NCBI RefSeq assembly: GCF_000341395.1
Contig: NC_020304.1
Coordinates: 2,400,001 to 2,432,000, forward strand
Origin: Desulfocapsa sulfexigens DSM 10523
GTDB lineage: Bacteria; Desulfobacterota; Desulfobulbia; Desulfobulbales; Desulfocapsaceae
Direction of reading: 5' to 3'
Length of the DNA: 32,000 bases
This document shows positions 2,372 to 19,530 of the stretch, in pieces; within the stretch, counting starts at the first letter, position 1, and each line of letters begins with the position of its first letter. A program made the translations under genes and the position numbers. The notes below the pieces were generated by a model. It was not told where the DNA came from, made no database searches, and saw only the letters and a program-made list of their open reading frames with translations.

Positions 2372-2387
2372 TCACTCTTCTCTGGTT

Positions 2388-4219: not shown

Positions 4220-5058
4220 CAACTCCAGTAACTCTTGGTTATTCACCCTGTCCAAACGATACCTATATCTTTTATGCACTGACCCATGGTCTGATTCCAC
4301 TGCCTGATGTGCAGTTGGCAGCACCACTGCTTGAAGATGTGGAAACCCTGAACTCCTGGGCGGTGGAGAAAAAACTCGACATCACCAAGCTTTCCTTTCA
4401 TGCCCTTGGTCATGTACTGGATGAATATTGTGTGCTTTCCGCAGGCGCTGCTCTTGGTCGTGGCTGTGGCCCGCTTCTTGTAGCAAAGCCCGGATTTGAC
4501 CCTGCAGTTCTTGATGATGCACGTATTGCTATCCCGGGCAGCCTGACCACCGCCGCTCTTCTTTTTCGTATGTATTCCCCTAAAGCCACAAATTTGGTGG
4601 TAATGCGTTTTGATGAAATCATGGGGGCGGTAGCAAGTGGAGAGGTGGATGCGGGGGTAATTATTCATGAAAGCCGTTTCACCTATGCAGAACATGGACT
4701 GACTTGTCTGCAGGACCTTGGCACCTGGTGGGAGCAGACCTCGGGGCATCCCATACCATTGGGCTGCATTGCTGCCAGACGTTCCCTTGGAAAAGAGCGG
4801 ATAGAACAGATAGACAGGGCGATCCATGAGTCCATTGTCTGGGCCGATGAACACCCCGGAGAGTGTCTTCCCTATATTCAGCAATATGCTCAGGAGATGG
4901 ATCAACAGGTGATGCAAAATCATATAGATCTGTATGTGAATCAATTTTCCAAGAATCTTGGACCAGAAGGGATGGCAGCGATTGAGAGTTTTCTTCTTCT
5001 TGGCCGAAAGGCGGGTATTCTTCCCATCCTGCCAGATACAGTCACCCTGCAGATATGA
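4216..5058 (+). CDS. mqnD: 1,4-dihydroxy-6-naphthoate synthase (futalosine pathway)
   Basis: LGYSPCPNDTYIFYAL, LEDVETLN, GAALGRGCGPLLVA and IIHESRFTY closely follow the Thermus MqnD sequence as I recall it. Confidence 0.85.
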   Translation: MTTPVTLGYSPCPNDTYIFYALTHGLIPLPDVQLAAPLLEDVETLNSWAVEKKLDITKLSFHALGHVLDEYCVLSAGAALGRGCGPLLVAKPGFDPAVLDDARIAIPGSLTTAALLFRMYSPKATNLVVMRFDEIMGAVASGEVDAGVIIHESRFTYAEHGLTCLQDLGTWWEQTSGHPIPLGCIAARRSLGKERIEQIDRAIHESIVWADEHPGECLPYIQQYAQEMDQQVMQNHIDLYVNQFSKNLGPEGMAAIESFLLLGRKAGILPILPDTVTLQI

Positions 5059-5657
5059 GAGAATTAACAGGAATACAGCAGGAAGCACCCATTCGTGCCT
5101 GTCTGCTTATCGGTGGTCGCAGTTCCCGCATGGGTCGCCCCAAACACCTGATTACTGGGGTCAACGGCAGAACATGGGTTGAGAATACCGTGGATCTGCT
5201 GCAGCCCTTTACCAGCAAGATCGTTCTTTCAGGACGGGGGGAGGTGCCGGAAAGTCTTGCCGCACTTACACGTATTCCTGATGTCCCCGGAGTACAGGGC
5301 CCACTCACAGGAATCCTTGCAGCCATGCGCTGGCGACCAGATTCCTGCTGGTTGCTACTGGCCTGCGATATGCCTAATATTACCACGGAATCTCTGGAGT
5401 GGCTGATTGCCAGCAGAAGCCCCGACTCCTTCGGAACGGTTCCCCGTCTTCAGGAAAATGGTTTTGTCGAACCTCTTCTTGCCCTCTATGAACCGCAGGC
5501 CAAAGACTATTTTGAAGAACTCTGCTCCTCCGGTGTCTTACGGATTTCCATGGTGGCCAGACGTGCGAAGATAGCAACTCCAGTTATTCCACCGTCACTT
5601 TGTGGTGCCTGGAGCAATATTAATACCCCGGATGAATTGTCCCAGTCGCTTTTGTAA
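5055..5657 (+). CDS. mobA: molybdenum cofactor guanylyltransferase
   Basis: LLIGGRSSRMGRPKHL and LLLACDMP motifs, about 200 aa. ATGA overlap with the mqnD stop. Confidence 0.85.
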   Translation: MRELTGIQQEAPIRACLLIGGRSSRMGRPKHLITGVNGRTWVENTVDLLQPFTSKIVLSGRGEVPESLAALTRIPDVPGVQGPLTGILAAMRWRPDSCWLLLACDMPNITTESLEWLIASRSPDSFGTVPRLQENGFVEPLLALYEPQAKDYFEELCSSGVLRISMVARRAKIATPVIPPSLCGAWSNINTPDELSQSLL

Positions 5658-5715
5658 AAAAAGCGAACCGGAGTTAGTCCCAAACCACCACACATATTTG
5701 TTACCATCATATTCA

Positions 5716-6771
5716 ATGCAACAACAAGATAGAATACAGAATATTCAGGCGCTCCGTGGTGTCGCTGTCCTTTTTGTCGTGTTTTTACACCTTTTCAGTG
5801 TTGAGCGGAAATATGGCGGTTTGGAGACGATCCTTCCAGATATTCTGCAATTTGGAATATTCGGGGTGGATATGTTTTTTGTGATCAGTGGCTTTGTAAT
5901 GGTCACCGTAACAAGAGGAAAATTTCGCAATTTCAGGCATGCAGTAACCTTTATCTATCGCCGTCTTTCAAGGATTTATCCATTGTACTGGGTGTACACT
6001 TTACTGGTTTTGGTTGTTTTTCTCATCCAGCCGTCCTGGGTTAACAGCAAACAGGGAAACCATATCTCTATTCTTGAGTCTTTTTTGTTGATCCCGTCGC
6101 ATTATTTGCCACTGGTTATGGTTGGATGGACTCTTATCCATGAAATCTATTTTTACACTGTCTTTTCATTGGCACTGCTCTTTTCCTCCGAAAAAAGACT
6201 GCCATTTGTGCTTGTGGGCTGGGGCGGAATTGTTGTTTTGGGGAGTGTCCTGTTTACTGTTACGCTCCCAACTCTCAGGATACTTTTTCATCCTCTGACT
6301 CTCGAGTTTATTGGGGGCTGTTTTCTGGCAATCCTGTACCAAAAAAGGAACTTCACTGTAAAACCTGCTATCCTCGTTGTTCTCGCTTTAGCTGCTCTCG
6401 TGGCCTCGGTCTCCGGATACTATCTCTTTACTGTTGTTACAGGAAGGATCGAACCGCTCTATTGGTGGAGGGTATTCATTTTTGGTATCCCTGCTCTGGC
6501 AATTGTATTCTGTCTGATCAATGCAGAGAGGAATGGCTATCTCATGAACCGCTATCTGATCAGGGTTGGAGATGCCTCATATTCCATATACCTGTCGCAT
6601 ATATTGAGCTTAAGCCTCGTCGGGAGGATTTGGGGGACTTTTTCTGTCAATGGTCTTGCTGATAATATGGTAGTCCTTCCACTTGCACTGGTATTTGTCA
6701 TTATTGTTGGCATGGCCAGCTACTCGTTAGTTGAAAAACCACTCCTGAGAATAAGCCGAAAACTGATTTAG
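5716..6771 (+). CDS. acyltransferase family 3 integral membrane protein
   Basis: IQALRGVAVLFVVFLHL and GVDMFFVISGFVM motifs, multiple TM segments, YSIYLSHIL near the C-terminus. The ATG at 5716 is preferred to the ORF-track start at 5602, which overlaps mobA. Confidence 0.8.
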   Translation: MQQQDRIQNIQALRGVAVLFVVFLHLFSVERKYGGLETILPDILQFGIFGVDMFFVISGFVMVTVTRGKFRNFRHAVTFIYRRLSRIYPLYWVYTLLVLVVFLIQPSWVNSKQGNHISILESFLLIPSHYLPLVMVGWTLIHEIYFYTVFSLALLFSSEKRLPFVLVGWGGIVVLGSVLFTVTLPTLRILFHPLTLEFIGGCFLAILYQKRNFTVKPAILVVLALAALVASVSGYYLFTVVTGRIEPLYWWRVFIFGIPALAIVFCLINAERNGYLMNRYLIRVGDASYSIYLSHILSLSLVGRIWGTFSVNGLADNMVVLPLALVFVIIVGMASYSLVEKPLLRISRKLI

Positions 6772-6924
6772 GTCCTAAAAGGGGCAGTACAGTGCTGTAA
6801 CATCTTCAAATCAACAAAAACTGTGGATTCAGATGATACAAGATCACTCTTATACGAGACTTGATAAAGCAAAACAGGACATATGAATATTTACAGCAAG
6901 CATATTTTACTTTTGGCATTCGTA

Positions 6925-6959
6925 CTCACTGAACCTCGCCGCTCAACACTACGTTAGCG
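6925..6959 (+). repeat. partial attC-like junction element (family motif plus core-like GTTAGCG)
   Basis: CTCACTGAAC (6925-6934) matches the TYCAC..GGAC family motif. ACGTTAGCG (6951-6959) lies 37 nt before the PEBP ATG. It aligns to 13071-13129 with an internal deletion. Confidence 0.3.
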
Positions 6960-6995
6960 ATAGAAGAAACCATTAACTTTCAATAAGGAGACATT

Positions 6996-7550
6996 ATGTT
7001 CAAGTATTTTTTTGTGACAATCTTTACCTTGATATTGGCAGTATCAGTTACTCATGCTCAAGAATTTTCTTTAAAAAGCAATGCCATTGAGCCAAATTCC
7101 TTTTTATCTGAAAGCCAACTATTTAATGGATTTGGTTGTACAGGGAAAAACATCTCTCCTGATCTGAGCTGGACCTCCGGACCAAATGGCACTAAGAGTT
7201 ATGCTATAACTGTCTATGATCCAGATGCTCCTACTGGTTCGGGGTGGTGGCACTGGGTTGTGTACAACATACCTAGTACTACCACTGAATTGGTAACAGG
7301 TGCAGGGAGTGAAAGCGGAGAAAAGCTACCAAAAGGAGCTGTTCAAGGGCGTACGGATTTTGGGATTAATGGTTTTGGCGGTGCTTGCCCACCAGAAGGA
7401 GACAAGGCCCATCGCTATATTTTTACAATATATGCACTTAAAATAGAAAAAATTGAACTTCCCAAAGATGCAAGTTCGGCATTAATTGGTTTTATGATTA
7501 ATGCTAATTCACTTGGTAAAGCAAGCTTTGTTGCCAAATATGGCCGCTAA
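6996..7550 (+). CDS. YbhB/YbcL-family phosphatidylethanolamine-binding (PEBP/Raf-kinase-inhibitor-like) protein, secreted
   Basis: Signal peptide ending AVSVTHA/QE. YAITVYDPDAPTGSGWWHWVVYNIP and HRYIFTIYAL motifs. RBS AAGGAG upstream. Confidence 0.88.
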   Translation: MFKYFFVTIFTLILAVSVTHAQEFSLKSNAIEPNSFLSESQLFNGFGCTGKNISPDLSWTSGPNGTKSYAITVYDPDAPTGSGWWHWVVYNIPSTTTELVTGAGSESGEKLPKGAVQGRTDFGINGFGGACPPEGDKAHRYIFTIYALKIEKIELPKDASSALIGFMINANSLGKASFVAKYGR

Positions 7551-7580
7551 TAACACGTGTAAGTGGATTTGCGGTTTAAT
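7548..7580 (+). repeat. short or truncated attC-like junction element
   Basis: TAATAAC (contains the PEBP stop), then GTGGA (7563-7567), a 6-nt spacer, then GTTTAAT (7574-7580). The 3' half has the same architecture as 15728-15745. Confidence 0.3.
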
Positions 7581-7663
7581 GAAGTATGTTGTTTCTTTGC
7601 CCGTTTTATCCAGTGAGCCTTCTCGAAAGGTCGATTTCCATCGATCTTTTCTCCCTTCCCTTT

Positions 7664-7696
7664 AGCCCCCCTGATCTTTTTCAGAGGGGCTTTTTG
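7664..7696 (+). terminator. rho-independent terminator-like hairpin
   Basis: AGCCCCCCTGA / TCAGAGGGGCT stem (10 of 11 paired) followed by TTTTT. Confidence 0.45.
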
Positions 7697-7986
7697 CTTT
7701 TGCTTGACCCCTTTTGCTGTCAAAATGCAGGATTCACAACCCGAATCGGCTATTAAATCGTGTCTAACGGGGAATATGGTTTTGAAACCAGTTTGTGATA
7801 GAGAACTCTGCAGGTACAATCTAATAATTTCGGTATCCCTGCCGGATAAGTTCGTAAAACTCAATAAAATCAGACATAAAGAGACTATGAAATGGTTGCT
7901 TTTTAACACAAATCACTCTATCTATGATAGATGATTGAATTTCGAATGGATATAAAAGATGTGCAAACAAAAGAATTGAATAATGA

Positions 7987-8106
7987 AAGGGGTCAAGTCT
8001 CCCTTTGACCTTTGTAGTGGTTGTGTGATATAGCAAAAACATGTCAATACTACTACGTATGGAATATCATGGCGCTTGGTATCATGTTCACTTAGAAACG
8101 GGGTAG
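7987..8106 (+). pseudogene. remnant of a RAYT/IS200-like (Y1) transposase gene: 5' leader plus a truncated, frameshifted N-terminus (copy 1)
   Basis: ATG at 8041 reads MSILLRMEYHGAWYHVHLETG*. R.EY.GAWYHV is the conserved N-terminal motif of REP-associated tyrosine transposases. The leader 7987-8046 is repeated at 9474-9533 with about 3 mismatches in 60 nt. Confidence 0.45.
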
Positions 8107-8292
8107 GATAAAGCTGGCGGATGACAACATAATGATACGACAAGTTGAATTTACAAAATAATCACATTTTTTATTCTTGGTAACGAAAGGGGGCAAATCT
8201 GCTTTTTGGCTTTTGCTTGGCCTCTAAGGTCAAAAGGAGACTTTGTTTATTGTTAAAGGACCAGTGTGTCGCAAGGGGGAGACATCGACAAG

Positions 8293-9378
8293 ATGAATTT
8301 GCAGAGTAGTAATTATTCGTACATGCCCCAGCTTGACAGTATTAAAGGTTTGGCAGTTGGAATGATGATTTTTTATCATTGGCTACCAGAACAGTATCGC
8401 TTTCTGGTTTTTGCCGATTTTGGTTTACAGTTTTTCTTTATTATAAGTGGATTTTTCGTTACTCGGACTCTAGTGCATACCCGCTGTGATTCTTCCTTGT
8501 TCAGTGAAAAAATCAGGATTTTGGCTACATTTTATGCGCATCGTTTTCTACGTATTTGTCCACTTTATTATATCCTCATCCTCTTAACATATGTGGTTGG
8601 CATTGCCTCTGTACGCGATTCCTGGCCGTGGCACATAACGTATCTTTCGAACTATTATTTTTTTTTCATCCAGAGTTGGCACGATGAGACATCTCATTTC
8701 TGGTTCTTAGCAGTGCTTATGCAGTTTTATATGTTGTGGCCTGGGATTATTCTTTTTCTTCCAAGAAATTGGCATAAACAAGTATTCTTTGGTTGTATTT
8801 GTCTGACGGTTCTGTTTCGATTTACCATTCCATTGTGTTGGCCCGAGATCAAAATGCTTTCAGTTCTTCCTTGTATGTATCTGGATGCTTTTGGGATTGG
8901 TTCTTTACTCGGATATTTAACAGCTGAAAAATGTGATTTGACTTTGTTTTATAAGATATGCTTGTGGGGGGGAGTTTTGTATGTGGCTTTTCAAGTGGCT
9001 AAATGGCTCGGATTTTCATCTCCTGTGACTATTGTTGCTCAGCGTGAATGTATGTTGTTGGGAATAGGCTGGTTGCTTTTCCATGCCTCTCAGGGCTATG
9101 GTGGAATCGCTGGTATGATTTTAGGAAACAGGGTTTTAAGGTATTTGGGAAAGATTAGTTTAGGATTGTTTCTGATCCATAATTTTTCGGGTATTTTGAT
9201 TTCACTACTAAAACCGGTAATAGACATACCGACGAATAGGTTCAGTGTTACTATTCTCCTATTGAGAATCCTCTTCACTGTCGCTCTGGCAATGGTTTCG
9301 TATCGTTTTCTTGAAAAGCCAATAGCTCAGTTTAAACGGTATGTACCATATCCTGAAATGAGCAAAGGAAACAATTAA
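8293..9378 (+). CDS. acyltransferase family 3 integral membrane protein (second copy of the family)
   Basis: LDSIKGLAVGMMIFYHW, FFFIISGFFVT, multiple TM segments, LGLFLIHNF. ATG at 8293; a GTG at 8266 is an alternative start. Confidence 0.8.
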   Translation: MNLQSSNYSYMPQLDSIKGLAVGMMIFYHWLPEQYRFLVFADFGLQFFFIISGFFVTRTLVHTRCDSSLFSEKIRILATFYAHRFLRICPLYYILILLTYVVGIASVRDSWPWHITYLSNYYFFFIQSWHDETSHFWFLAVLMQFYMLWPGIILFLPRNWHKQVFFGCICLTVLFRFTIPLCWPEIKMLSVLPCMYLDAFGIGSLLGYLTAEKCDLTLFYKICLWGGVLYVAFQVAKWLGFSSPVTIVAQRECMLLGIGWLLFHASQGYGGIAGMILGNRVLRYLGKISLGLFLIHNFSGILISLLKPVIDIPTNRFSVTILLLRILFTVALAMVSYRFLEKPIAQFKRYVPYPEMSKGNN

Positions 9379-9414
9379 AAACTGCTTTTTTCCACCCGGG
9401 GACCTCTGTTAACC
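9376..9414 (+). repeat. short attC-like junction element
   Basis: TAAAAAC contains the acyltransferase stop. Followed by TCCACCCGGGGAC (family motif) and GTTAACC (9408-9414). Confidence 0.3.
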
Positions 9415-9473
9415 GAAGCAAAACTGGAACAGGCCATCATCTCCCTACATGACCAATCGCAATGGAAGGGTGG

Positions 9474-9560
9474 AAGGGGTCAAGTCTCCCTTTGACCTTT
9501 GTGGTGATTGTATGATATAGCAAAAACATGTCAGAAGCACTACGGATATGTTCCATGAGA
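9474..9560 (+). pseudogene. RAYT/IS200-like transposase 5' remnant (copy 2), truncated after about 10 codons
   Basis: 60-nt near-identical leader (GGGGTCAAGTCTCCCTTTGACC...CAAAAACATGTCA), then weaker similarity to copy 1 (CTACG.AT...CATG) up to the cupin RBS. Confidence 0.4.
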
Positions 9561-9572
9561 AAAGGAGTAAAT

Positions 9573-9624
9573 ATGAATACTATATTCCCTGAACCAATTG
9601 GGAATTTACCAAAAGCCGACATTC
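9573..9624 (+). pseudogene. cupin-domain protein, 5' fragment (17 codons) cut by the IS21-family insertion
   Basis: RBS AAAGGAG, then ATG at 9573: MNTIFPEPIGNLPKADI. It joins in frame to 12280 once the IS and one CATTC copy are removed. Confidence 0.8.
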
Positions 9625-9651
9625 TGCATATTCCAGACGATTCCGGCCACC
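9625..9651 (+). repeat. IS21-family left terminal inverted repeat
   Basis: TGCATATTCCAGACGATTCCGGCCACC, compared with the reverse complement of the right end, TGCGTATTCCAGTGAATCCGGCCACC. Confidence 0.8.
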
Positions 9652-9816
9652 GATTCCAGAGTAAACCGGCCACTCATTCCACGTGATTCCGGCCACCGAT
9701 TCCATTTCATTCCGGCCAGTGATTCCAGAGGAATCCGGTCACCCCAAATAGGGAGTAGCGACGCATAGAACCAACTGGTAGAGAGTGCCTTTTTGAATAA
9801 AATTCAAGGAGGGCTC

Positions 9817-11370
9817 ATGCCGAAGAAGAGGTTATCTATGCGAAAAATTAGAGAGGTACTACGACTCAAGTATGAACTTGGGCACAGTAACCGTGAAATT
9901 TCCCGTAGCTGCGGTATTGGCAGCAGCACGGTAAGTGACTATTTACAACGAACCAAAAGAGCAGATCTGGGTTGGCCCCTTCCTGACGACCTAAGCGACA
10001 GCAGCCTTGAACAAACCCTTTTCCCTCCACCGCCTCCACCGGGGACAAGCCGGCTAATTCCAGATTTCTCTGAGATCCACAAAGAGCTCCAATCCAAACG
10101 AGGGGTTACCCTGAACCTGCTGTGGCAGGAATACAAAGAGCAGCATCCTGACGGCTACCAGTACAGCTGGTTCTGCCATAGTTACCGGGATTGGGCCGGC
10201 AAGCTTGATCTGGTCATGCGCCATGAACACCGAGCCGGTGAGAAACTGTTTGTCGACTACGCAGGCCAAACCGTCGATGTCGTTGACCAACACACCGGAG
10301 AAATCACAAAGGCTCAGGTCTTTGTTGCGGTCCTTGGTGCCAGCAACTACACCTATGCTGAGGCCACTCCCAGCCAGAAGATTGAGGATTGGATCGGTTC
10401 ACATGTCCGTACATTTGCTTTCCTGGGTGGGGTTCCGGAAGTTGTCGTTCCAGATAACCTGAAAAGTGGCGTCACAAAAGCCTGCCGTTACGAACCTGAC
10501 CTTAATCCCACTTATCATGATCTGGCCCGACATTATCAAACCGTGGTGCTGCCTGCAAGGGTTAGAAAACCAAGGGACAAGGCCAAGGCTGAGGCCGGTG
10601 TATTGCTGGTGGAACGCTGGATTCTGGCAAAACTCCGTAAACATACTTTCTTCAACATTGACGATCTCAATCGCGAAATAGGCAAACTCCTTGAGCAACT
10701 GAACAACAAGCCTTTCAAGAAGTTATCCGGCAGCCGTAAAAGTCGCTTTGAAGAACTGGACAAACCTGCCCTGAAACAACTTCCAGCCAGCCCTTATGAA
10801 TTATCCTACTGGAAAAAGGCCACTGTACATATCGACTATCATGTGGAGGTCGAGGGACATTACTATTCCGTTCCATATAACCTGGTCAAAAAACAGATTG
10901 AGGTGCGCTATACCAAAAGCACGGTTGAGTGTTACTTTCGTGGTAAACGGGTGGCCAGTCACATCCGGGAGAATCAACGAGGGCACCACACTACCGTCAA
11001 AGAGCATATGCCTGTCAACCACCGAAAGTACATGGAGTGGAATCCGGACAGGTTCAAGCGCTGGGCTGCCAAGGTCGGGCCGGAGACACTCTGCCTCACA
11101 GAGACGCTTCTTGTAAAAAGAGCTCACCCACAACAGGCCTATCGCACTTTGCTGGGCATTCTCCGTCTTGGCAAAGCCTATGGAGATTCACGCCTTGAGG
11201 CAGCATGCCATCGGGCCCTGCATATCAACGCCCTTTCTTACCGCTCAGTGGAATCCATACTCAAAAGCGGCCTTGATCAGAAGCCACTACCGAAGCCGGC
11301 TACAGAGGACAAGCCGGTTAATCACGCAAATATCCGTGGCTCTCAGTATTATTCTCCCTCAACCCACTAA
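9817..11370 (+). CDS. istA: IS21-family transposase IstA
   Basis: N-terminal HTH (MPKKRLSMRKIREVLRLKYELGHSNREISRSCGIGSSTV). DDE core region (FVDYAG...VPDNLKS...). RBS AAGGAGG precedes the ATG at 9817; the ORF-track start at 9793 is a TTG. Confidence 0.92.
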   Translation: MPKKRLSMRKIREVLRLKYELGHSNREISRSCGIGSSTVSDYLQRTKRADLGWPLPDDLSDSSLEQTLFPPPPPPGTSRLIPDFSEIHKELQSKRGVTLNLLWQEYKEQHPDGYQYSWFCHSYRDWAGKLDLVMRHEHRAGEKLFVDYAGQTVDVVDQHTGEITKAQVFVAVLGASNYTYAEATPSQKIEDWIGSHVRTFAFLGGVPEVVVPDNLKSGVTKACRYEPDLNPTYHDLARHYQTVVLPARVRKPRDKAKAEAGVLLVERWILAKLRKHTFFNIDDLNREIGKLLEQLNNKPFKKLSGSRKSRFEELDKPALKQLPASPYELSYWKKATVHIDYHVEVEGHYYSVPYNLVKKQIEVRYTKSTVECYFRGKRVASHIRENQRGHHTTVKEHMPVNHRKYMEWNPDRFKRWAAKVGPETLCLTETLLVKRAHPQQAYRTLLGILRLGKAYGDSRLEAACHRALHINALSYRSVESILKSGLDQKPLPKPATEDKPVNHANIRGSQYYSPSTH

Positions 11371-11390
11371 AACAAAAAGGAAACGATAAA

Positions 11391-12128
11391 ATGCTTCTGC
11401 ATCCAACACTTGAAAAACTCACAACTCTTCGATTCACCGGCATGGCCGCAGCACTCCAGGAACAGATGGACATGGACACTGCAGATAACCTGGGTTTCGA
11501 AGAACGCCTCGGTCTGTTACTTGACCGCGAGCAGGCGGTCAGGGAAACCAGAAAACTTCAGACCAGACTCAGAAAGGCAAAGCTGCGGCAGGATGGCTCA
11601 ATCGAGGATGTAGACTTCCGTCATCCGCGTGGTCTGGATAGGTCACTGGTAACCAGGCTGGCTGACTGCAACTGGATAAAGGAACATACCAATCTGCTTA
11701 TTACCGGCCCCACTGGAGTCGGCAAATCCTATCTTGCCTGTGCCTTGGCCCAAAAGGCATGCAGAGAAGGCTATAGTGCTCTCTATCTCCGTCTGAGTAA
11801 ACTCTTTGAAGATCTGGCTCTTGCCAAGGGGGATGGCCGTTATCTGAAGTTACTGACTGTCTATTCAAAAACAGATCTATTGGTACTTGATGACTATGGA
11901 CTGGCCACACTCAACCAGGAGCAACGCCATGATTTACTAGAAATACTGGAAGACAGACACGGCCTCAAATCTACCTTGGTAACCAGTCAATTACCGGTAG
12001 AGCACTGGCATGAGCGGATCGGAGATCCGACTTTAGCCGACGCCATTCTTGACCGTCTGGTACATGCCGCTCACAAAATCAAACTGAAAGGAGAATCTAT
12101 GAGAAAAAAGAAAGCACGCTTGACGTGA
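11391..12128 (+). CDS. istB: IS21-family helper ATPase IstB
   Basis: Walker A GPTGVGKSYLA, Walker B LLVLDDYG, and a typical IstB C-terminus (DRLVHAAHKIKLKGESMR). Confidence 0.92.
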   Translation: MLLHPTLEKLTTLRFTGMAAALQEQMDMDTADNLGFEERLGLLLDREQAVRETRKLQTRLRKAKLRQDGSIEDVDFRHPRGLDRSLVTRLADCNWIKEHTNLLITGPTGVGKSYLACALAQKACREGYSALYLRLSKLFEDLALAKGDGRYLKLLTVYSKTDLLVLDDYGLATLNQEQRHDLLEILEDRHGLKSTLVTSQLPVEHWHERIGDPTLADAILDRLVHAAHKIKLKGESMRKKKARLT

Positions 12129-12248
12129 GAGCAACACACAGAGTAAGAAGGAAATATTCGCGTCGCTACGCTCCGACACCCTGGCCGGAATCCTCTGGAC
12201 TGGGTGGCCGCTTTGCCGTGGAATTACTGGCCGGAATCAAGTGGACTG

Positions 12249-12274
12249 GGTGGCCGGATTCACTGGAATACGCA
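12249..12274 (-). repeat. IS21-family right terminal inverted repeat
   Basis: Its reverse complement matches the left IR at about 21 of 27 positions. The element ends in CA at 12274. Confidence 0.8.
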
Positions 12275-12563
12275 CATTCCAATGGAGGGCTTAAAAGCGT
12301 ATCTTTCCCAGGCCGAAAACCATCAGATTGTATTTATGGAATTCGAGACTGACGTGGACCTCGCAGAGCATTCACACGCAAGCCAGTTCGGGATTGTCCT
12401 CGAAGGAAAAATTGATCTAAATATTGATGGTAAGAAACACACTTTCGTAAAAGGCGATCGTTATTTTATACCTGGTGGTACTATCCATTCAGGTAAAATA
12501 TATGCAGGGTATGCCGATGTCTCATTTTTTGAAGAACCAAGTAGGTATAGGGTTTCGGAATAA
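12275..12563 (+). pseudogene. cupin-domain protein, 3' fragment
   Basis: PMEGLKAYLSQAENHQIVFMEFETDVDLAEHSHASQFGIVLEGKIDL..GDRYFIPGGTIHSG is a cupin_2 signature. The N-terminal part of ORF 12204..12563 is read-through of the IS right end. Confidence 0.85.
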
Positions 12564-12660
12564 CGGCGACAGCATATCCACTCATTCGAGTGGACGCGAA
12601 GTTGCTGTGCGCCTTTTTTGGGAAAGGTATTTCGTGCGCCACTCAATGACAGTGTTCAAA
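12558..12660 (+). repeat. attC-like junction element (long, composite)
   Basis: GAATAAC contains the cupin stop. TCCACTC/GAGTGGA hairpin (12577-12596). Outer stem GGCGACAGCA/TGCTGTGCGCC with one bulged base. GTTCAAA (12654-12660) lies 10 nt before the next start. Confidence 0.35.
12565..12619 (+). terminator. hairpin plus T6, rho-independent terminator-like (inside the junction element)
   Basis: A 10-bp outer stem encloses a 7-bp inner hairpin and is followed by TTTTTT (12614-12619). Confidence 0.4.
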
Positions 12661-12670
12661 AGGAGAAATC

Positions 12671-13060
12671 GTGGAGTTAATTAAGTCGTTTGTAATCGCT
12701 TCATTATTTGTACTGTTATATGGCTGTGCGTCAATGAATACGCCCTCATCGTCCTTAATTGAAACAAAGCCAGTCGTTACAATTGGTGAAGTCAGCCGTG
12801 CGTCAGAAGATCATGTTGTTTTTATTCCTGCAAATAAAGAATTTCCTGTTGAATTCTCAGTTAAAGGAAATGTGTTTGAAAAAAATGTTTCATCAAAGGC
12901 AATGGTGAGTTTTAAAAAAGACATTTATTTATATAAATATTGGGCAAGCCTTGATGGAAAAAAGTGGGCAAATTCTCACAAGCTTATGAATGTTGAGCCA
13001 TCTGGTGGTTTTGATGTATCTGGCGGCAAAGTCGGAGTTGAAATCAACTTTGCAAAATAG
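12671..13060 (+). CDS. small lipoprotein of unknown function
   Basis: GTG start with RBS AAGGAG. Lipobox VLLYG/C. 129 aa. Confidence 0.7.
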   Translation: MELIKSFVIASLFVLLYGCASMNTPSSSLIETKPVVTIGEVSRASEDHVVFIPANKEFPVEFSVKGNVFEKNVSSKAMVSFKKDIYLYKYWASLDGKKWANSHKLMNVEPSGGFDVSGGKVGVEINFAK

Positions 13061-13129
13061 AAACATGACAAGGCAATTTCACACGGACGTCTCGCTACCG
13101 CCCTACTTCGGAGAATTGCGACGTTAGTG
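13058..13129 (+). repeat. attC-like junction element
   Basis: TAGAAAC contains the stop. TTCACACGGAC (13078-13088) is the family motif. AATTTC pairs with GAGAATT leaving one bulged G. GTTAGTG (13123-13129) lies 11 nt before the GNAT ATG. Confidence 0.4.
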
Positions 13130-13140
13130 TAATACAACCA

Positions 13141-13625
13141 ATGATAAGACAAGCTGAAATTCAAGAAGCGGAAATTTTGACAGAAATATCTTTTAACTCT
13201 AAAGGATACTGGAATTATCCAAAGGAGTTTTACGAAATATGGTCCAAGGAACTGATTATAAGTTCCGATTACATACAAAACAATGATGTATTAGTTTTTG
13301 AAAACGCTGGAAAGATTATCGGTTATTATTCAATTGTGGAACTCAAAGATGATATTGAAATTTCAGGTATCATCATAAGCAAAGGTTTCTGGCTTGAGCA
13401 TGTGTTTATCGAGTCTCATAGTATAGGTCAAGGAATAGGAACAAAAATGTTTGATCACTTACGGGAAAGGTGTTCTTCCCATGGCCTTTGTGAATTGGGT
13501 ATTCTTGCTGATTCTAATTCAGAGGATTCTATGAGAAAATTGGCTGTGAATATAAATTTGAATATCCATCAACTATCAAGAATCGTACAACCCCTTATCT
13601 TCAATTGAAAATAGGGAGGTGCTAA
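13141..13625 (+). pseudogene. GNAT-family N-acetyltransferase with a -1 frameshift near the C-terminus
   Basis: The frame beginning at 13141 carries the GNAT core (LEHVFIESHSIGQGIGTKMFDHL). After about 13522 the conserved continuation GFYEKIGCEYKFEYPSTIKNRTTPYLQLKI is in the neighbouring frame, ending at TAA 13623-13625. Confidence 0.6.
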
Positions 13626-13684
13626 GCACTGCATTGAGAGGATGCAGAAATATCGTTGTGCATTTTTAATGCGGGACGTTAGCC
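13620..13684 (+). repeat. attC-like junction element (best-formed example)
   Basis: TGCTAAG (holds the corrected GNAT stop) pairs with GTTAGCC (13678-13684) over GCTAA/TTAGC. A 4-nt spacer precedes GCATTGAG, which pairs with TTTAATGC at 6 of 8 positions. Apical hairpin ATGCA/TGCAT. A 5-nt spacer GGGAC precedes the core. Total 65 nt. Confidence 0.5.
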
Positions 13685-13699
13685 GGATAAATAGGAATT

Positions 13700-14428
13700 A
13701 TGAAGACACCTTTTATACAGAAATCATCAACCGAAGAGATAAGAAAACGATTTGATAATGATGTCGCACGTTTTTCAAATCTTGAAACCGGGCAGTCTGC
13801 GACTATCGATGCTCCATTAGCTATGGAACTGATTACACGAGCGGCAGTTAAATCAACCAGCAACATACGAAGAGTTTTGGATATCGGCTGTGGAGCGGGA
13901 AATAATACGCTTAAACTTTTACAGTATGCCTCTCCTTTCGATTGTGATCTTATTGACCTGAGTTTACCGATGTTGGAAAAAGCTTGTGAGCGTATTGCAG
14001 CAGTAAACTCGGGGAAAATCAAAACTATTCAGGGCGATTTTCGTAAGATTGATTTGCCACATCAAGGATATGACATCATTCTTGCTGCTGCTGTCCTGCA
14101 TCATTTACGTGATGACCAGGATTGGGAAAAAGCATTCAAAAAGCTTTACAATTTAACCGCCCCTGGCGGAAGCATCTGGATTACGGATTTGATATCTCAT
14201 GAGTCCAAAGCAGTTCAATCTCTCATGTGGGAACGGTATGGAGAATATCTTTGCTCTATGGGAGGTGCCGATTACAGGACAAAAGTATTTGAATACATCG
14301 ACAAAGAAGATTCACCGCGGCCAGTTACATATCAACTGGATTTGCTACGGAAAGTTGGATTTAAACGCACTGAAATTTTACACAAAAATTCTTGTTTTGC
14401 TGCTTTTGGTGCGATAAAAATGGGCTGA
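13700..14428 (+). CDS. class I SAM-dependent methyltransferase
   Basis: Motif I VLDIGCGAGNNT. Acidic D at the end of beta-2 (DLIDLS). AAAVLHHL. 242 aa. Confidence 0.85.
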   Translation: MKTPFIQKSSTEEIRKRFDNDVARFSNLETGQSATIDAPLAMELITRAAVKSTSNIRRVLDIGCGAGNNTLKLLQYASPFDCDLIDLSLPMLEKACERIAAVNSGKIKTIQGDFRKIDLPHQGYDIILAAAVLHHLRDDQDWEKAFKKLYNLTAPGGSIWITDLISHESKAVQSLMWERYGEYLCSMGGADYRTKVFEYIDKEDSPRPVTYQLDLLRKVGFKRTEILHKNSCFAAFGAIKMG

Positions 14429-14514
14429 CAAATCACTGCATTGGAAAAAGGGGTCAAGGGTTTGGGTTACTTTTAGGTATGCACATTTTTTTCCAGTGAG
14501 CTTAAAGGTTAAAT
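14426..14514 (+). repeat. attC-like junction element (subfamily shared with 13620-13684)
   Basis: Shares CACTGCATTG with the previous junction. TCACTG (14433-14438) pairs with CAGTGA (14494-14499). Ends in a perfect GTTRRRY core, GTTAAAT (14508-14514). Contains an AAAAAGGGGTCAAG motif copy. Confidence 0.4.
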
Positions 14515-14565
14515 TCCAAAGATCAGTGCAAAATTAATTTCAATGTAAAGTCATAGGTATTAATA

Positions 14566-15412
14566 ATGTCCCTTTCGGTTATGTTAGTCGTTTTACTTGC
14601 AGCTACACTACATGCGTCATGGAATTTCCTTATTAAACAAAAGAAGGACAAACACATAAGTATGACAGCAGTAGTTCTGGGACATGCCCCATTTGCTCTC
14701 GCTGTACTATTATTCTCACCTCTTCCTCAAATTGAGTCACTTCCTTATATCGTTATTGGAGCGTTGTTGCACACTGGTTATCAACTATTCTTACTATATT
14801 CTTATCGTATTGGTGACTTAAGCCAAGTTTATCCTTTAGCTCGCGGAGTAGCTCCTATAGTTGTCGCTGTTGTTTCAGTTGTTTTTTTGGGAACTCACCT
14901 TGACCAAATAGAACTGTCAGCAATAGCCATTATTGGATCTGGTATAATAAGTTTATCATTGGTTCGACGAAGTCGATGGTTTAAAAAATTATAAAGCCGC
15001 AATTTTAGCAATAGTTACTGGAGGATTTATTGCTGCTTATTCTCTAGTTGACGGACTGGGGGCTCGTGTCGCTACAACTGCACTTGGGTTTTATGGCTGC
15101 TTATCGATCTTAAATGCCATAATTTTTACTATTATAATAAATTTTATTAAGCCAGGGATGGTCAAGATCGTGGCCCAAGAAAATTACAAGTTGGCTTTGA
15201 GCAGTGGTGGTGCATCTTTTACAGCCTACGCATTGGTGATTTGGGCTTTCACCATGGCACCTATTCCAGTAGTCACTGCCCTGAGAGAAACAAGTATAAT
15301 TTTTGCTCTTTTTCTAGGTGTGTTTGTACTTAAAGAAGGACTTGATTTAATTAAAGTATTTGCATCAATGGTTACAATCCTTGGTGCAGGGTTGCTTCGC
15401 ATTAATCGTTGA
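14566..15412 (+). pseudogene. EamA/DMT-family transporter, frameshifted and split into ORFs 14566..14994 and 15158..15412
   Basis: The second half (KAAILAIVTGGFIAAYSLVDGLGARV...) reads continuously in the +1 frame from about 14948. The frame change must lie between 14948 and 14992, a stretch that includes an A6 run (14983-14988). Confidence 0.65.
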
Positions 15413-15419
15413 GGTGCAG

Positions 15420-15463
15420 GTGAAACTACTTCACAATAAAAACTTTATTTAAACCGGTTACCC
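15420..15463 (+). repeat. short attC-like junction element
   Basis: GTGAAAC, then a GTGAA/TTCAC hairpin, the palindrome AACCGGTT, and GTTACCC (15457-15463). Confidence 0.25.
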
Positions 15464-15492
15464 AGGCCCTTAGGAGCACAAAAGATACAATT

Positions 15493-15689
15493 ATGAACAT
15501 TGACATATACATTTATGATCAAGCAGAAGTGCTCGACTTTTCGGGACCACTTCTGGAAACATAGTCACTTCGGGTGGAATATCCGCAGGTATTGACATGA
15601 GTCTATATCTTGTAAGTAAATTGCATTCAATAGAACTAGCAGAAAAGACAGCTCGCCAAATGGAGTTTGACTGGATTAAAAACTCATAA
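15493..15689 (+). pseudogene. DJ-1/PfpI-family protein remnant with a large internal deletion and frame change
   Basis: N-terminus MNIDIYIYDQAEVLDFSGP, then a stop. From about 15555 another frame reads GNIVTSGGISAGIDMSLYLVSKLHSIELAEKTARQMEFDW, the conserved C-terminal third. The central part, about 100 or more codons, is missing. Confidence 0.6.
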
Positions 15690-15745
15690 CCAACTGCTCC
15701 ACTGGACCAGGAAACTTCGCCGGTTCGGTGAATTCTGCGTTATAT
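15684..15745 (+). repeat. attC-like junction element
   Basis: TCATAAC contains the stop and pairs with GTTATAT (15739-15745) over ATAAC/GTTAT. A 7-nt unpaired spacer precedes TCCAC (15698), which pairs with GTGAA (15728). A 6-nt spacer follows. Total 62 nt. Confidence 0.45.
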
Positions 15746-15775
15746 TTAAAATTCAAGAGTAGAAGGAGAAACAGA

Positions 15776-16489
15776 ATGTCGACCAACTCTACTACCCACC
15801 CTACTTGGCTTATCGCGTGGATGGAAGCAAAAGAAATTTCTCTATGGGGTGCCGCAGACCTTCGAAATTTTTCAACACCTTCAGATCAAGCAGGAAATCG
15901 ATTTCCAATCGCTATTTCATTTGTGATTCCCATGAATCCCATAATAATGGATAGTATCCATAAAGGGCCTAACCAGGCATATGCCGATGAATACACACGA
16001 GTGAACAAACACATTAATGAATTATCAACAACCCTATCAGTAGAAATCAAATCAAGAGGTTTTCAATCCCTACCTTTAGCGGCATCAGTACGTTCAGATC
16101 CTGTGAACATTAAGGGAGATTTTCCACACAAAACTGCGGCAACAAGAGCGGGTTTGGGATGGATAGGGCGTCATTGTCAGCTCATTACGCGTCCTTTCGG
16201 TTCATGGGTTCGGTTGGGAACCGTCTTTACTGATATTGAAATTCCGTGTGGACCGCCGGTGAAAAAGAATTTTTGCGGTAGCTGCATGAGTTGTGTCGAG
16301 GCTTGCCCTGCAAAAGCATTGAAAGGTAGTGAGTGGTATCCGGGGTTGGCTCGGGAGGAAATATTGGATGTGCAAGCATGTGATCAATGGAAAAAGGAAC
16401 ATTATTTTCAATATCACAAAGGACACAATTGCGGAATCTGTTCAGCAGTTTGTCCTTATGGTCAGCGATTGTTAAAAAAACTTCGATAG
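15776..16489 (+). CDS. 4Fe-4S cluster protein related to epoxyqueuosine reductase / reductive-dehalogenase C-terminal domains
   Basis: Two ferredoxin-type motifs, CGSCMSCVEACP and CGICSAVCP. RBS AAGGAGA lies 7 nt before the ATG at 15776. The ORF-track GTG at 15728 falls inside the junction element. Confidence 0.75.
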   Translation: MSTNSTTHPTWLIAWMEAKEISLWGAADLRNFSTPSDQAGNRFPIAISFVIPMNPIIMDSIHKGPNQAYADEYTRVNKHINELSTTLSVEIKSRGFQSLPLAASVRSDPVNIKGDFPHKTAATRAGLGWIGRHCQLITRPFGSWVRLGTVFTDIEIPCGPPVKKNFCGSCMSCVEACPAKALKGSEWYPGLAREEILDVQACDQWKKEHYFQYHKGHNCGICSAVCPYGQRLLKKLR

Positions 16490-16503
16490 TGAATGAAATC
16501 TGT

Positions 16504-16590
16504 AAATAACAGCTATTTCACATGGACTTACAGGAGTTCGACGGTCACCCCGGACATCAGCTTTAGTGGAAAGAATTTATTGCGTTCATA
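16504..16590 (+). repeat. attC-like junction element (last in the array, degenerate)
   Basis: AAATAAC, TTCACATGGAC (16517-16527), GTGGAAA pairing with TTTCAC leaving one bulged G, and GCGTTCATA (16582-16590). Confidence 0.35.
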
Positions 16591-16731
16591 AATTGGGGGA
16601 CGCAATACCATTTCAAGTTGCAAGTAAAGCCTATCAAGAAACTTCAAGGACCATTTGAAATGGAAAATTGGTTGTAGCGCACCTAAAAGCAATCAAGCAA
16701 GAACGTTCCTCTATGTCTGTGAGAGGCTGTC

Positions 16732-17478
16732 TCAAGGAGAAGGGGATGTATGAATCCGTATATAGTCGAGGCAGGCTCTGGCGGATTCACCAGTGTTGTC
16801 TGAGTCGCTCATAACTGCAATGGCGGCGATTGAAGGGGGATCTTCGCCAAAGGCGGAACGGTAATCCTGGAGAATGTTGGCGGTATGTTCCAGCCACTTG
16901 CCCACATCTTCTTTTCCGGATGCCATCGGGAAAACCATGGCCAGGTCGGTGTAAGGGTTGGGGAGAAAGTGTTCGGGGTGTTTCCGACTGGACCAGACAT
17001 AGTTGAGCGAGCTGTGAGGAGGGTATTTCCCGTATAGGGCTCGGATAACTTCATATTTTATCTTCTTGAATACGGAAGCTTTTTCCGGGTCATACTCAAA
17101 CATCACATAGATGCGTACAGGAGCATCGTCACCTTCCTTTTTGCTTATATCCCCTTTCTGGTATATGTTGCTGATTCGCCAGCGCCAGCTAATCATGGGG
17201 AAAATGTAGGCGTCGAACCGTTCAGAGAGAAGCAGGGCTGAGGCGGAGTTATCGGAACTGGCCTCAAGGCACGATGTTCCCATCAGATCGGTTGCTTGAT
17301 AGGTGGAACGATTTTCAATATTTTTGAATGAAAACAATTCCCAGCGCTCAATCCCATCAAATTGTTCATCCAGGAAAATATCAGCTGCCGGGCTCTGCAG
17401 TGGAAATGCGAGCAGCAATAAAAGAAGCAGGAGTACAGTGGCAGGTGGTCGTCGGCATCCGCTTGTCATAGTTTCCAC
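16732..17478 (-). CDS. DUF3047-family secreted protein
   Basis: Signal peptide (LLLLLLLLAFPLQSPA/AD). ISWRWRISN....GDDAPVRIYVMF matches the DUF3047 signature as I recall it. Confidence 0.75.
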   Translation of the reverse strand: METMTSGCRRPPATVLLLLLLLLAFPLQSPAADIFLDEQFDGIERWELFSFKNIENRSTYQATDLMGTSCLEASSDNSASALLLSERFDAYIFPMISWRWRISNIYQKGDISKKEGDDAPVRIYVMFEYDPEKASVFKKIKYEVIRALYGKYPPHSSLNYVWSSRKHPEHFLPNPYTDLAMVFPMASGKEDVGKWLEHTANILQDYRSAFGEDPPSIAAIAVMSDSDNTGESARACLDYIRIHTSPSP

Positions 17479-18437
17479 CCGTAAAATTTGAGGAATCCGG
17501 GGAAGTCGTTCATGTCTGAAACCCTGCGATTCCAGACCTTCAGACTTGTATAGAAGGGATTAGCGCCAGTTCCGGTGCCGGTGAATTCCTTGTCCATCCC
17601 AACGTAGAAATCAAAACTGATAAGGCTGAGGAGCAGTGATTCCCATGGCTTGATAGCTCCCTTCACATGACCCTGCAGGGGCCAGGTCTGGTAATAGAAA
17701 CTGGTGCTGCCTCCGTCTGGAAGTTGCAGTGCCTTCAGTGATTCCAGGTTCATCACTTCTGCCTCGATAAAGGGTGCATCCAGTGGGGTGTCTCCTGAGA
17801 TAATGGAAAGAGCGCTAACCCGGTGTATTTCAGGTCGAACCTGGATAACGAGTAGATCGTCAGCCGAGTATGGAGGAAGTATTGCCGGCAGTAGTTCCCC
17901 ATAGATATTCTGGTTGTCATCCGGCCATTGTTCAGGGTAGGCAGTAACCGACAGGTGGGCAGTGGGAACGATGGCGATATAGCAGCCGCAGGTTTGCACC
18001 GTAGTCACCAACAGTGGATTCTGGTTGTTGTCCATGGTGATGATTACCAGGATTCCAGGATTTTTGCCGGCCGTCAGGTAAAATGGAAAGAGGCTGAATG
18101 GTGTGTCGGAAAAGTGGATCCGGTAAACCAGGTTGCTATAGTTTCCATTGGCAGTGGAGAAGGGGAAGGTGCCGGCATAGATAACTGAGCGGTCCGGGTC
18201 GACGGAGATGCATTCAACCTCATCAGTCTTTGCTGCAGTTGCCAGGCCGATGCGGTTGTGCGGACGATCCCATCCTGGTACCTGGAAAATTGGAGAAAAG
18301 CGGGTGATCAGTTCATCCTGGCGGTTTGTTGGACCGACATAGCGGTTTGTGTCAGGTGAGGGGCCGGGGCTATGGAGAGAACAGCCTGTAAGGCAGAGAA
18401 ACAGGAAGGAAAAGATGAAATACAGGCAGTTGTTCAT
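17466..18437 (-). CDS. lipoprotein of unknown function (323 aa)
   Basis: Lipobox LCLTG/C. Long ORF whose 3' end overlaps the DUF3047 start by 13 nt. I do not recognise the family. Confidence 0.7.
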   Translation of the reverse strand: MNNCLYFIFSFLFLCLTGCSLHSPGPSPDTNRYVGPTNRQDELITRFSPIFQVPGWDRPHNRIGLATAAKTDEVECISVDPDRSVIYAGTFPFSTANGNYSNLVYRIHFSDTPFSLFPFYLTAGKNPGILVIITMDNNQNPLLVTTVQTCGCYIAIVPTAHLSVTAYPEQWPDDNQNIYGELLPAILPPYSADDLLVIQVRPEIHRVSALSIISGDTPLDAPFIEAEVMNLESLKALQLPDGGSTSFYYQTWPLQGHVKGAIKPWESLLLSLISFDFYVGMDKEFTGTGTGANPFYTSLKVWNRRVSDMNDFPGFLKFYGWKL

Positions 18438-18636
18438 TGCTTTACTGGTTAGTTATAGGAATGGGCAGGTCAAGTAAAAAAACAGCACTTTATAAAGATA
18501 GTTTTTGAAAAGCCAGCTTTATTTCAAATTAAATAGTTCCTGCCTTTGCAGACTTTTTTTGAGTTATGTAAAATGATTACAGGGGGGCATATTGGCGGAA
18601 AGTCTTGCATCAGAGAGGAAACAAATTTTGTCTCCT

Positions 18637-19203
18637 TCAGAAAACCTCTAAAAACGCTTTGTGATCTTCCTGGTTACCCTGCATGTCTGCCAGGGAAAGG
18701 GTGAGTACGTAATGACCAGCACTCAGTTTGGGGATTCTTGCGTCAATAACATAGTCAGCATTCTCACCATCCAGAGGATCGCGCATAAAGGGCATCATCC
18801 GATCAGTGATATTTAAGGAAAAAAAACCACGTTTTCCTTTGACACGCAAGGAGTCGAGATTGATTGGTGCCATACGACTTTTCAGGTAAACCAGAAGTCG
18901 TACCGGAGCAGCAGAGCGGTAGATGTCTCCCACCGGCGTAGGATCAATTATGGAGACAATTGGTCCCAGCTCATTGTCGCTATCGAATTTGATTTTGTCA
19001 CCTGTGGTGTATGGTTGAGCATCTTGTTTTACCGAGAGGAATTTTTGATGCTGAGCCAGTTCAAGTGACCATTCTTCCTGGGTCAGTTTAAGCTGTTCCA
19101 GCTCGTTATCGCTGAATAGGGGAGAGTGCTCCGTGTACCCTGGATTACTGAAAAAAAAGAGGAAAATAAAGGCTAGGGGCAGGGAATATTTTCTAAGTAA
19201 CAT
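18637..19203 (-). CDS. secreted protein of unknown function (188 aa)
   Basis: Hydrophobic N-terminal signal (LPLAFIFLFFFSNPGYT). I do not recognise the family. Confidence 0.6.
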   Translation of the reverse strand: MLLRKYSLPLAFIFLFFFSNPGYTEHSPLFSDNELEQLKLTQEEWSLELAQHQKFLSVKQDAQPYTTGDKIKFDSDNELGPIVSIIDPTPVGDIYRSAAPVRLLVYLKSRMAPINLDSLRVKGKRGFFSLNITDRMMPFMRDPLDGENADYVIDARIPKLSAGHYVLTLSLADMQGNQEDHKAFLEVF

Positions 19204-19451
19204 ATATCGTCACCTCGGAATAATTTAACCTGAACGATTCGACAAGCATAGCGGTGAGTATGGAGCAACATCTCTTTCATGATACAGCTATCTCAGCAGG
19301 AGGGACACATAAAAAAGCACTGGTGTTACAAATTAAGCATTATGACTACTTCAGGTTAGATGGGTCTCTTCAGCAGCATATTAGCTTCTTTAAAGAATTT
19401 TCGACAAAAGTAATTCTCTGAAAAATCCAGTCCCAGCTACCACATTTTCCC

Positions 19452-19530
19452 TTGACACCGTCATCGATATTAGTATCCTTCCAAAATTGTATTGGACAAT
19501 ATTGTATTGCCAAATTAAATATTGCAAAAT
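19452..19530 (+). promoter_or_regulatory. candidate proV promoter/operator region
   Basis: TTGACA at 19452-19457. Three TATTG(G/C) repeats at exact 15-bp spacing (19490, 19505, 19520). Perfect palindrome ACAATATTGT (19496-19505). Confidence 0.35.

Follow-up and report, generated by a model that had tools for sequence, protein, structure and literature searches.

A 32,000-nucleotide stretch of the Desulfocapsa sulfexigens DSM 10523 chromosome (NC_020304.1, positions 2,400,001 to 2,432,000; hereafter the window, whose own coordinates are used throughout) contains a block of plus-strand open reading frames (ORFs) that a sequence-only reading had taken for an integron-type array of about nine gene cassettes with no integrase in view. 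Integron cassettes are inserted and excised singly by the integron integrase at attC sites, which are imperfect palindromes of the form R''-L''...L'-R' whose folded bottom strand is cut by the integrase at the G/TT of R' (PMC4889954). We examined the genes of the block, their occurrence as cassettes elsewhere and the attC-like elements at their junctions.

Searches against Pfam and the PDB bore out that the genes of the block have mutually unrelated functions. The Pfam families are PBP, Acyl_transf_3, Cupin_2, GNAT, methyltransferase, EamA (twice) and Fer4, and a DJ-1 remnant matches residues 153-192 of 211 of a ThiJ-family structure in the PDB search (E-value 2.9e-4). All ORFs of at least 100 amino acids were listed, and Pfam was run on the block genes, the DUF3047 ORF and the frames of the gap at 7.5-8.3 kb. 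The block is, as had been noted, AT-richer than its surroundings, with a GC content of 0.38-0.40 (insertion sequence, IS, excepted) versus 0.47-0.52 in the flanks, which consist of housekeeping genes. The features are collected in Table 1.

Table 1. Genes, cassettes, attC-derived elements and insertion sequences of the block (window coordinates).
Feature	Position	Strand	Remarks
Acyltransferase 1 (Acyl_transf_3)	5716-6771 (ORF 5602-6771)	+	first gene beyond mobA synteny
R'-like core CTAC/GTTAGCG	6953-6959	+	3' half-site only, just upstream of PEBP ribosome-binding site
PEBP/YbhB-family gene (Pfam PBP)	6996-7550	+	common to sister strain
Degenerate attC 3' arm	7604-7637	+	TTTTATCCAGTGAGCC...GTCGATT; not significant in models
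Inverted attC 5'-arm fragment	7703-7734	-	reverse complement of 14431-14458 type
IS200/IS605-like (Y1-transposase) left-end remnant	7974-8095	+	hairpin GGTCAAGTCTCCCTTTGACC, then truncated ...EYHGAWYHV... frame
Strain-specific segment	7979-16654		replaced by 5.5 kb of different DNA in sister strain
Acyltransferase 2 (Acyl_transf_3)	8266-9378	+	Pfam
Second IS-end remnant copy	9461-9548	+	directly upstream of cupin start
Cupin gene (Cupin_2)	9574-~9637 and ~12264-12563 (Pfam on ORF 12204-12563)	+	split by IS21
IS21-family insertion	9630-12263	+	istA 9793-11370, istB 11391-12128, repeated 23-nt terminal motifs
Cupin attC	12572-12660	+	R'' GCATATC, spacer CACTC, L'' ATT-C-GAG, L' CTC-AAT, R' GTTCAAA
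Lipoprotein cassette	12655-13123	+	89-93% nucleotide identity to cassettes in other arrays
Lipoprotein gene, 129 amino acids	12671-13060	+	no Pfam family
Lipoprotein attC	13063-13129	+	R'' ACATGAC, spacer AAGGCA, L'' ATT-T-CAC, L' GAG-AAT, R' GTTAGTG
GNAT acetyltransferase pseudogene	13141-13624 (Pfam on 13141-13608)	+	frameshift near 13520
attC remnant after GNAT	13620-13684	+	R'' TGCTAAG, half L box, 3' end GGAC/GTTAGCC
SAM-dependent methyltransferase gene	13700-14428	+	Pfam; intact
Desulfocapsa-type attC after methyltransferase	14423-14514	+	R'' GGCTGAC, arms TCACTG[CAT]TGGAAAAA / TTTTTTCCAGTGAGC, R' GTTAAAT
EamA transporter pseudogene	14566-15412	+	frameshifted into 14566-14994 and 15158-15412 (Pfam)
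DJ-1/ThiJ/PfpI remnant	15494-15689	+	N-terminal 23 and C-terminal 40 codons left
Best-preserved attC	15684-15745	+	R'' TCATAAC, spacer CAACT, L'' GCT-C-CAC, L' GTG-AAT, spacer TCTGC, R' GTTATAT
Fe-S cassette	15740-16590	+	gene 15776-16489
Fe-S protein gene (Fer4_16, QueG-like)	15776-16489 (Pfam on ORF 15728-16489)	+	Pfam
Degenerate Fe-S attC	16504-16590	+	R'' AAATAAC, L'' ATT-T-CAC, R' GTTCATA

Two units of the block, those of the lipoprotein and Fe-S genes, were found with gene and attC in different arrays, the homology ending at G/TT. A search with the lipoprotein gave 132 homologues at identities of up to 93%, some of them from Candidatus (Ca.) Thiodiazotropha and Sedimenticola metagenome-assembled genomes (MAGs). 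On a 23-kb Joint Genome Institute (JGI) contig (L082) its gene lies within a run of small same-strand ORFs, and on a gammaproteobacterial Ca. Thiodiazotropha contig (L083) it adjoins a group II intron and a FitA/PIN pair. A metagenome scan yielded 29 further loci, with GTTATGT and TTCAAAAGGAG upstream of the gene in most; downstream of it stand canonical attC sites, for example ACATAAC-TAGGC-GCT[C]CACCCGAC...GTCGGGTGAGC-TTTAAC-GTTATGT. Nucleotide homology with the window spans 12659-13126 for L083 (89%) and 12655-13072 for L082 (93%). It begins directly after G12654 (G/TT 12654/12655) and ends within the GTTA of 13123-13126, and the 3' element of the unit in the window is the orthologue of the external attC sites. 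The Fe-S unit is 82% identical over 819 nt (window 15728-16545), and 81% at the protein level, to a JGI metagenome cassette. On contigs L113 and L114 the gene stands among 15 small same-strand ORFs separated by attC sites. Its copies there and in the window have in common the GTTATAT core ahead of the gene and the 5' portion of the attC that follows.

The same homologues provided some observations beyond the window. In L118 (8001-8726) the Fe-S gene lies outside any array, beside a LysR regulator, and only the coding part is shared. The Fe-S (QueG-like) family includes both cassettes (L113-L117) and an ordinary chromosomal gene (L118), the two being 80% identical, a duality that could reflect cassette genesis or domestication. 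In L083, a group II intron (1100-3756, RVT_1 and GIIM) lies just after a cassette, and the array contains the FitA/PIN toxin-antitoxin pair. In L083 and L091 (1150-1276), intron-like 3' ends (...GCCGGGCAAAC / ...GCTGGGCGTAC) lie directly against attC sites on their 5' side, as would be expected of attC-targeting group IIC introns.

To score the junctions of the block, attC models were built from external-array sites only; the first seed set contained neither the window sites nor L083, the closest orthologue. Twenty-one hand-parsed external sites share one geometry, namely R''(7), a spacer of 4-6 nt, three pairs, one bulged base and three pairs, followed on the 3' side by 3+3 pairs, a spacer of 4-6 nt and R'(7); all six L pairs are present in 20 of them. 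RNAalifold returned no structure from the raw MAFFT alignment of attC sites because variable loops misalign the 3' arms, and the alignment was thereafter restricted to one geometry class. The resulting 15-sequence alignment has 88.8% paired cells and compensatory changes in 11 of 16 pairs, values reached by none of 500 shuffles; slid registers were also far off.

Two kinds of model were then applied. Home-built Infernal covariance models were derived from 15 (R1) and 44 (R2) external attCs, and when R2 was run on control loci totalling 1.2 Mb, no match reached E ≤ 10. A position-and-pair model, under which held-out true sites score 25-50 bits, found 93 sites of at least 24 bits in 238 kb of array loci and 2-3 such sites in 1.14 Mb of control, at least one of which resembles a real attC; its noise ceiling, over the whole window and both strands, is about 15-18 bits. 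Whole-element DNA folding and an energy-based AAC...GTT scan were set aside as non-discriminating; true attC arms range from -0.5 to -14 kcal/mol and many false matches arise in coding DNA. Rfam, at both its gathering threshold and E ≤ 10, held no attC family and reported nothing useful in the window.

The top three window sites of the position-and-pair model all lie on the plus strand at gene ends. The first, 15684-15745 (34.4 / 30.5 bits), is also found by Infernal (R1, 18.6 bits, E 0.011; R2, 25.6 bits, E 1.9e-4). Inverse core and core are both present, R'' and R' (TCATAAC / GTTATAT) pairing at five of seven positions, and the L arms retain four of six pairs plus one G-T pair, together with the bulged base and 5-nt spacers. 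The second, 13063-13129 (28.0 / 24.0 bits), keeps five of six L pairs, and its R'' reads ACATGAC versus ACATAAC in six orthologues. The third, 12572-12660 (21.6 bits, of which the 5' arm alone reaches 14.2), retains all six L-box pairs and scores 10.6 bits (E 1.2) with R1 and 8.2 bits (E 4.3, 12576-12656) with R2. At 12565-12622 the cupin junction also contains a strong hairpin (GGCGACAGCA...TGCTGTGCGCC) in which a second stem, TCCACTC/GAGTGGA, is nested; six T follow, and the structure resembles an intrinsic terminator that overlaps the 5' region of the attC.

The remaining elements are more degenerate. As a whole site, 13620-13684 scores at noise level (15.1 bits) and is unlisted by Infernal; its 3' end reaches 11.9 bits, a score found at 0.01 per kb, and its end-to-end fold has a z of about -2.5. 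In the restored GNAT frame, the TAA stop (13622-13624) falls inside the R'' of this remnant. The site after the methyltransferase gene, 14423-14514, scores 12.0 bits in our model and 7.2 bits (E 7.6) with R2, and is unlisted by R1. In 16504-16590, a 5-nt insertion splits L' GTG from AAT and the 3' spacer is long; the 5' arm scores 10.9 bits and the whole site about 4-12 bits, again at noise level, while the orthologous site is intact. The 3' end at 6953 scores 8.9 bits, against a background of 0.12 per kb per strand. Overall, junctions are enriched for half-site scores, and at least six units (cupin, lipoprotein, GNAT, methyltransferase, DJ-1 and Fe-S) bear 3' elements derived from attC, all in the same orientation.

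This parsing redraws part of the earlier one. Among the 5' ends proposed from the sequence alone, 13620, 15684 and 16504 were retained, 13058 and 12558 shift to 13063 and 12572, and 7548 and 9376 score at background. The 3' ends at 12654, 13123, 13678, 14508 and 15739 held, those at 6953 and 16584 are plausible, and 7574 and 9408 are at background. The proposed family motif TYCAC(N)GGAC proved to be real and corresponds to the conserved L'' region of attC, external sites reading GCTCCACCGGAC and similar. Instead of nine cassettes, about six or seven units are supported. The PEBP unit, whose homologues showed no clean attC homology, is unproven as a cassette, as is that of acyltransferase 2, because the element after it (9376-9414) scores at background.

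One element type links the block to a relative of its host. The 3' arm at 7604-7637 is homologous to that of 14423-14514, and it and both arms of the latter match an attC family (TATTCACTGGAAAAC...GTTTCCAGTGAG) that is repeated in a Desulfocapsa MAG (L012). In that MAG (Desulfocapsa sp. MC-05), a run of small plus-strand ORFs at 139-3503, upstream of queA, includes several attC-like sites that form a single homogeneous family (TATTCACTGGAAAACAAGC...GCTTGTTTCCAGTGA) and were missed by the Infernal model; it probably represents the cassette array of a related species. Another Desulfocapsa MAG (L009, 1391-1494) has a 26-bit attC-like site (ATATAACAATAAGCTCCACTGGACGGG...) at the 3' end of murI, which may be either a lone stray attC or a match by chance. 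Elsewhere in the window, both Infernal models reported at E about 1.5, on both strands, an isolated inverted repeat at 25185-25208 (ATATAACAA...GTTATAT), some 90 nt upstream of a TolC-like gene (25297); it is probably an operator and not an attC.

The IS debris noted earlier was identified as an IS21-family insertion in the cupin gene and IS200/IS605-like end remnants. The IS21 ends (9630-9744 and 12181-12263) bear four 23-nt motifs (ATTCCAGAnnATTCCGGCCACCG) in tandem, inversely oriented, and the insertion is flanked by an imperfect 8-nt duplication, CAyATTCC. A repeat of 87-110 nt starts with a hairpin (AAAGGGGTCAAGTCTCCCTTTGACC) and enters a truncated ...EYHGAWYHV... frame, with copies in the window, in L119 (15793-15902) and in L088 (1722-1900). 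In L088 the same 18-nt end precedes a Y1-type transposase gene starting MARPLRIEFAGALYHVTARGN and inserted into a cassette gene. The repeat has the appearance of an IS200/IS605-like (Y1 transposase) left end, and its 87-nt copy is not part of an attC. A short copy of this IS-end motif occurs within an attC, at 14446. Four genes of the block are inactivated, one more than first counted: cupin by IS21, GNAT and EamA by frameshifts, and DJ-1 by an internal deletion.

Outside the block, the gene order lolA-murI-queA-mqnB-mqnA-mobA is conserved among Desulfocapsa relatives and synteny ends at mobA. Relatives found through MqnA have none of the block genes and therefore could not define the right boundary of the block. 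Right after the mobA stop, at 5658-5679, the window reads AAGCGAAC-CGGA-GTTAGTC, that is, R''-like and R'-like heptamers 4 nt apart, both at background score, 36 nt before acyltransferase 1; this gene is not shown to be a cassette.

A closer comparison was provided by a sister strain (Logan assembly L119/L120), which is 97% identical to window positions 1-7978 and 16655-20751. Acyltransferase 1 and PEBP are common to both strains, and acyltransferase 2 through the Fe-S gene occur only in the window strain; the sister strain has SNase, NYN/OST-HTH, bPH_2, DUF5131 and Ig-like protein genes in their place. The left breakpoint coincides with the end of the IS200/IS605-like remnant. The sequence-only reading had looked to related strains for polymorphism at exactly the G/TT boundaries. 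As neither breakpoint (7978/7979 or 16654/16655) lies at a GTT core and the replacement DNA is attC-free, these two sequences differ instead by the exchange of an entire block, at a hot spot marked by IS, and not by the turnover of single cassettes.

Several of these results weigh against a cassette array, beginning with the sister strain's breakpoints off GTT and the lack of any attC in its 5.5 kb of replacement DNA. The training attCs were found via homologues of window genes. The covariance-model check was significant at 15684-15745 and at no other junction; 13063-13129 was not found by R2 and is not listed by R1. Junctions after PEBP, acyltransferase 2 and EamA are at background score, and no attC is recognisable after EamA. 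Only 13618-13686 and 15682-15747 fold end to end, the single-strand DNA folds of most junctions being no better than shuffles, and pairwise junction similarity is mostly near noise (87-nt repeat excepted), which makes the earlier claim of a related element after each ORF too strong. Such a pattern might be produced by an ordinary strain-specific island at a rearrangement hot spot, in which the junction motifs would be terminators, repetitive extragenic palindromic (REP)-like repeats or chance matches and one or two stray cassettes would represent insertions at secondary sites, by the route of single attC sites lacking integron-integrase (SALIN) or attG. The unrelated genes at the same place in the sister strain, the single covariance-model site, the near-noise junction similarity and the terminator-like, GC-rich hairpin of the cupin junction would all suit this explanation, and cassettes are documented to be inserted by the integrase at places other than att sites (Loot et al., bioRxiv 10.1101/2022.09.11.507474). 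However, two distinct units are genuine cassettes bounded by GTT, attC arms occur at six consecutive junctions in the correct order and orientation, and a terminator scan yields fewer sites than shuffles. Moreover, the recurrent motif is the attC L'' consensus and not a genome-wide repeat, and nothing elsewhere in the window reaches comparable scores. We therefore regard an ordinary island as highly improbable.

The block is, in our assessment, very probably a decayed relic of an integron cassette array without an integrase in view, in a D. sulfexigens-like chromosome, and of the type described as attC-site clusters that have no integron-integrase (CALIN), as the sequence-only reading had proposed. 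Three independent observations support this interpretation: two units recur as cassettes elsewhere, with boundaries at GTT cores and conserved attC 5' parts; the top window matches of externally trained models sit on the plus strand at predicted junctions, with nearly none in the control; and 14423-14514 and 7604-7637 belong to the attC family of the Desulfocapsa MAG array. Its extent is secure between about 12.5 and 16.6 kb; a start at 9.4 kb is plausible, and one as far back as 6.95 kb is possible but less secure. To count as a CALIN, a locus needs two or more attC sites spaced by less than 4 kb and no neighbouring intI (PMC4889954). In our model, 13063-13129 and 15684-15745 are 2.6 kb apart, and 12572-12660 is a further site, while Infernal finds a single site.

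The lack of an intI ORF in the window was upheld: a tblastn search with an IntI1 query had no match at E ≤ 1e-3 in the window or the other loci searched, no recombinase was found among the Pfam-scanned ORFs, and Pfam had no match in the window's only long non-coding gap. A complete integron, with intI, attI and the promoter Pc beside the first cassette, is accordingly not seen in the window. One tyrosine-recombinase-like match came from an unrelated control locus (L027).

An integrase encoded elsewhere in the 3.99-Mb genome or on a mobile element could act in trans, and the array would then still be a working reservoir. Half of the known CALIN lie in genomes encoding IntI, and trans-mobilisation has been proposed (PMC4889954). 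A related Desulfocapsa MAG has a homogeneous attC array, and 15684-15745 looks intact, with its R box paired at five of seven positions, 5-nt spacers, bulged base and L box. Excision, however, requires two usable sites, and the neighbours of this one are degenerate or missing. The invariant AAC of R'' is lost at four sites, having become ATC (12572), GAC (13063), AAG (13620) and GAC (14423) and remaining intact at 15684 and 16504, and four genes are pseudogenes. A functional reservoir thus appears unlikely.

In the decayed relic that we favour, R' GTT is intact at all six recognisable sites and R'' AAC is mutated at four of the six. The contrast has a one-sided hypergeometric p of about 0.03 (calculated by hand), in which ascertainment bias is likely, R' having been found partly via GTT. 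It is conceivable, though doubtful, that this decay is non-neutral and that the persisting cassettes are those immobilised by R'' mutations, which would have survived excision by an integrase acting in trans. If so, the locus would be a natural record of cassettes becoming fixed chromosomal genes, and the presence of a near-identical lipoprotein cassette in Ca. Thiodiazotropha, a lineage of sulfur-oxidising symbionts, would point to a cross-phylum cassette pool in marine sediments.

The history of the block may be outlined as follows. Each unit would originally have been a promoterless gene with its attC, moved by an integron integrase, and the array would later have been separated from its integrase or have lost it. 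IS are found in or near many CALIN, and rearrangement or integrase loss has been proposed as their origin (Cury et al., PMC4889954). Here, IS-mediated rearrangement would be a likely route of separation because an IS-end remnant lies exactly at the sister-strain breakpoint. The array would now be decaying, with four R'' AAC lost, one L' insertion, one junction deleted and four genes inactivated. This decay of sites and genes suggests that most units are no longer excisable and presumably immobile, the block having become an ordinary strain-specific accessory island, whose surviving genes would be expressed from local promoters or by read-through.

Compared with known systems, the block shares with CALIN (2016, PMC4889954) same-orientation cassettes, attC spacings below 4 kb, the absence of intI from the neighbourhood, IS inside and beside the array, and cassette functions that are mostly non-resistance and poorly known. 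It differs in that most of its attC are mutated, one passing the covariance model and two our own, which places it at the detection limit of at least two attC. Like sedentary chromosomal integrons such as the Vibrio superintegron, it is a chromosomal array of promoterless accessory genes with 3' attC of the R''-spacer-L'' (with bulged base), L'-spacer-R' layout and with cassettes common to other bacteria. Unlike them, it has no intI, attI or Pc in view, its attC are heterogeneous instead of forming one homogeneous family, and pseudogenisation is heavy. As in SALIN and attG (bioRxiv 10.1101/2022.09.11.507474), cassette DNA lies outside an integron platform, and the covariance model alone would report a single attC, but several consecutive units with attC-derived ends indicate a former array and not isolated insertions.

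The locus belongs to a known kind of element and leaves the understanding of integrons unchanged. Searching the literature brought up no earlier mention of Desulfocapsa integrons, and the block adds a documented cassette relic for this sulfur-disproportionating lineage. It also provides a concrete case of a cassette, attC included, that is common to Desulfobacterota and Gammaproteobacteria at 89% nucleotide identity. Cassette arrays can decay below detection by covariance models while intact orthologous cassettes still betray their origin, and surveys that count only model-positive attC sites consequently undercount old arrays.

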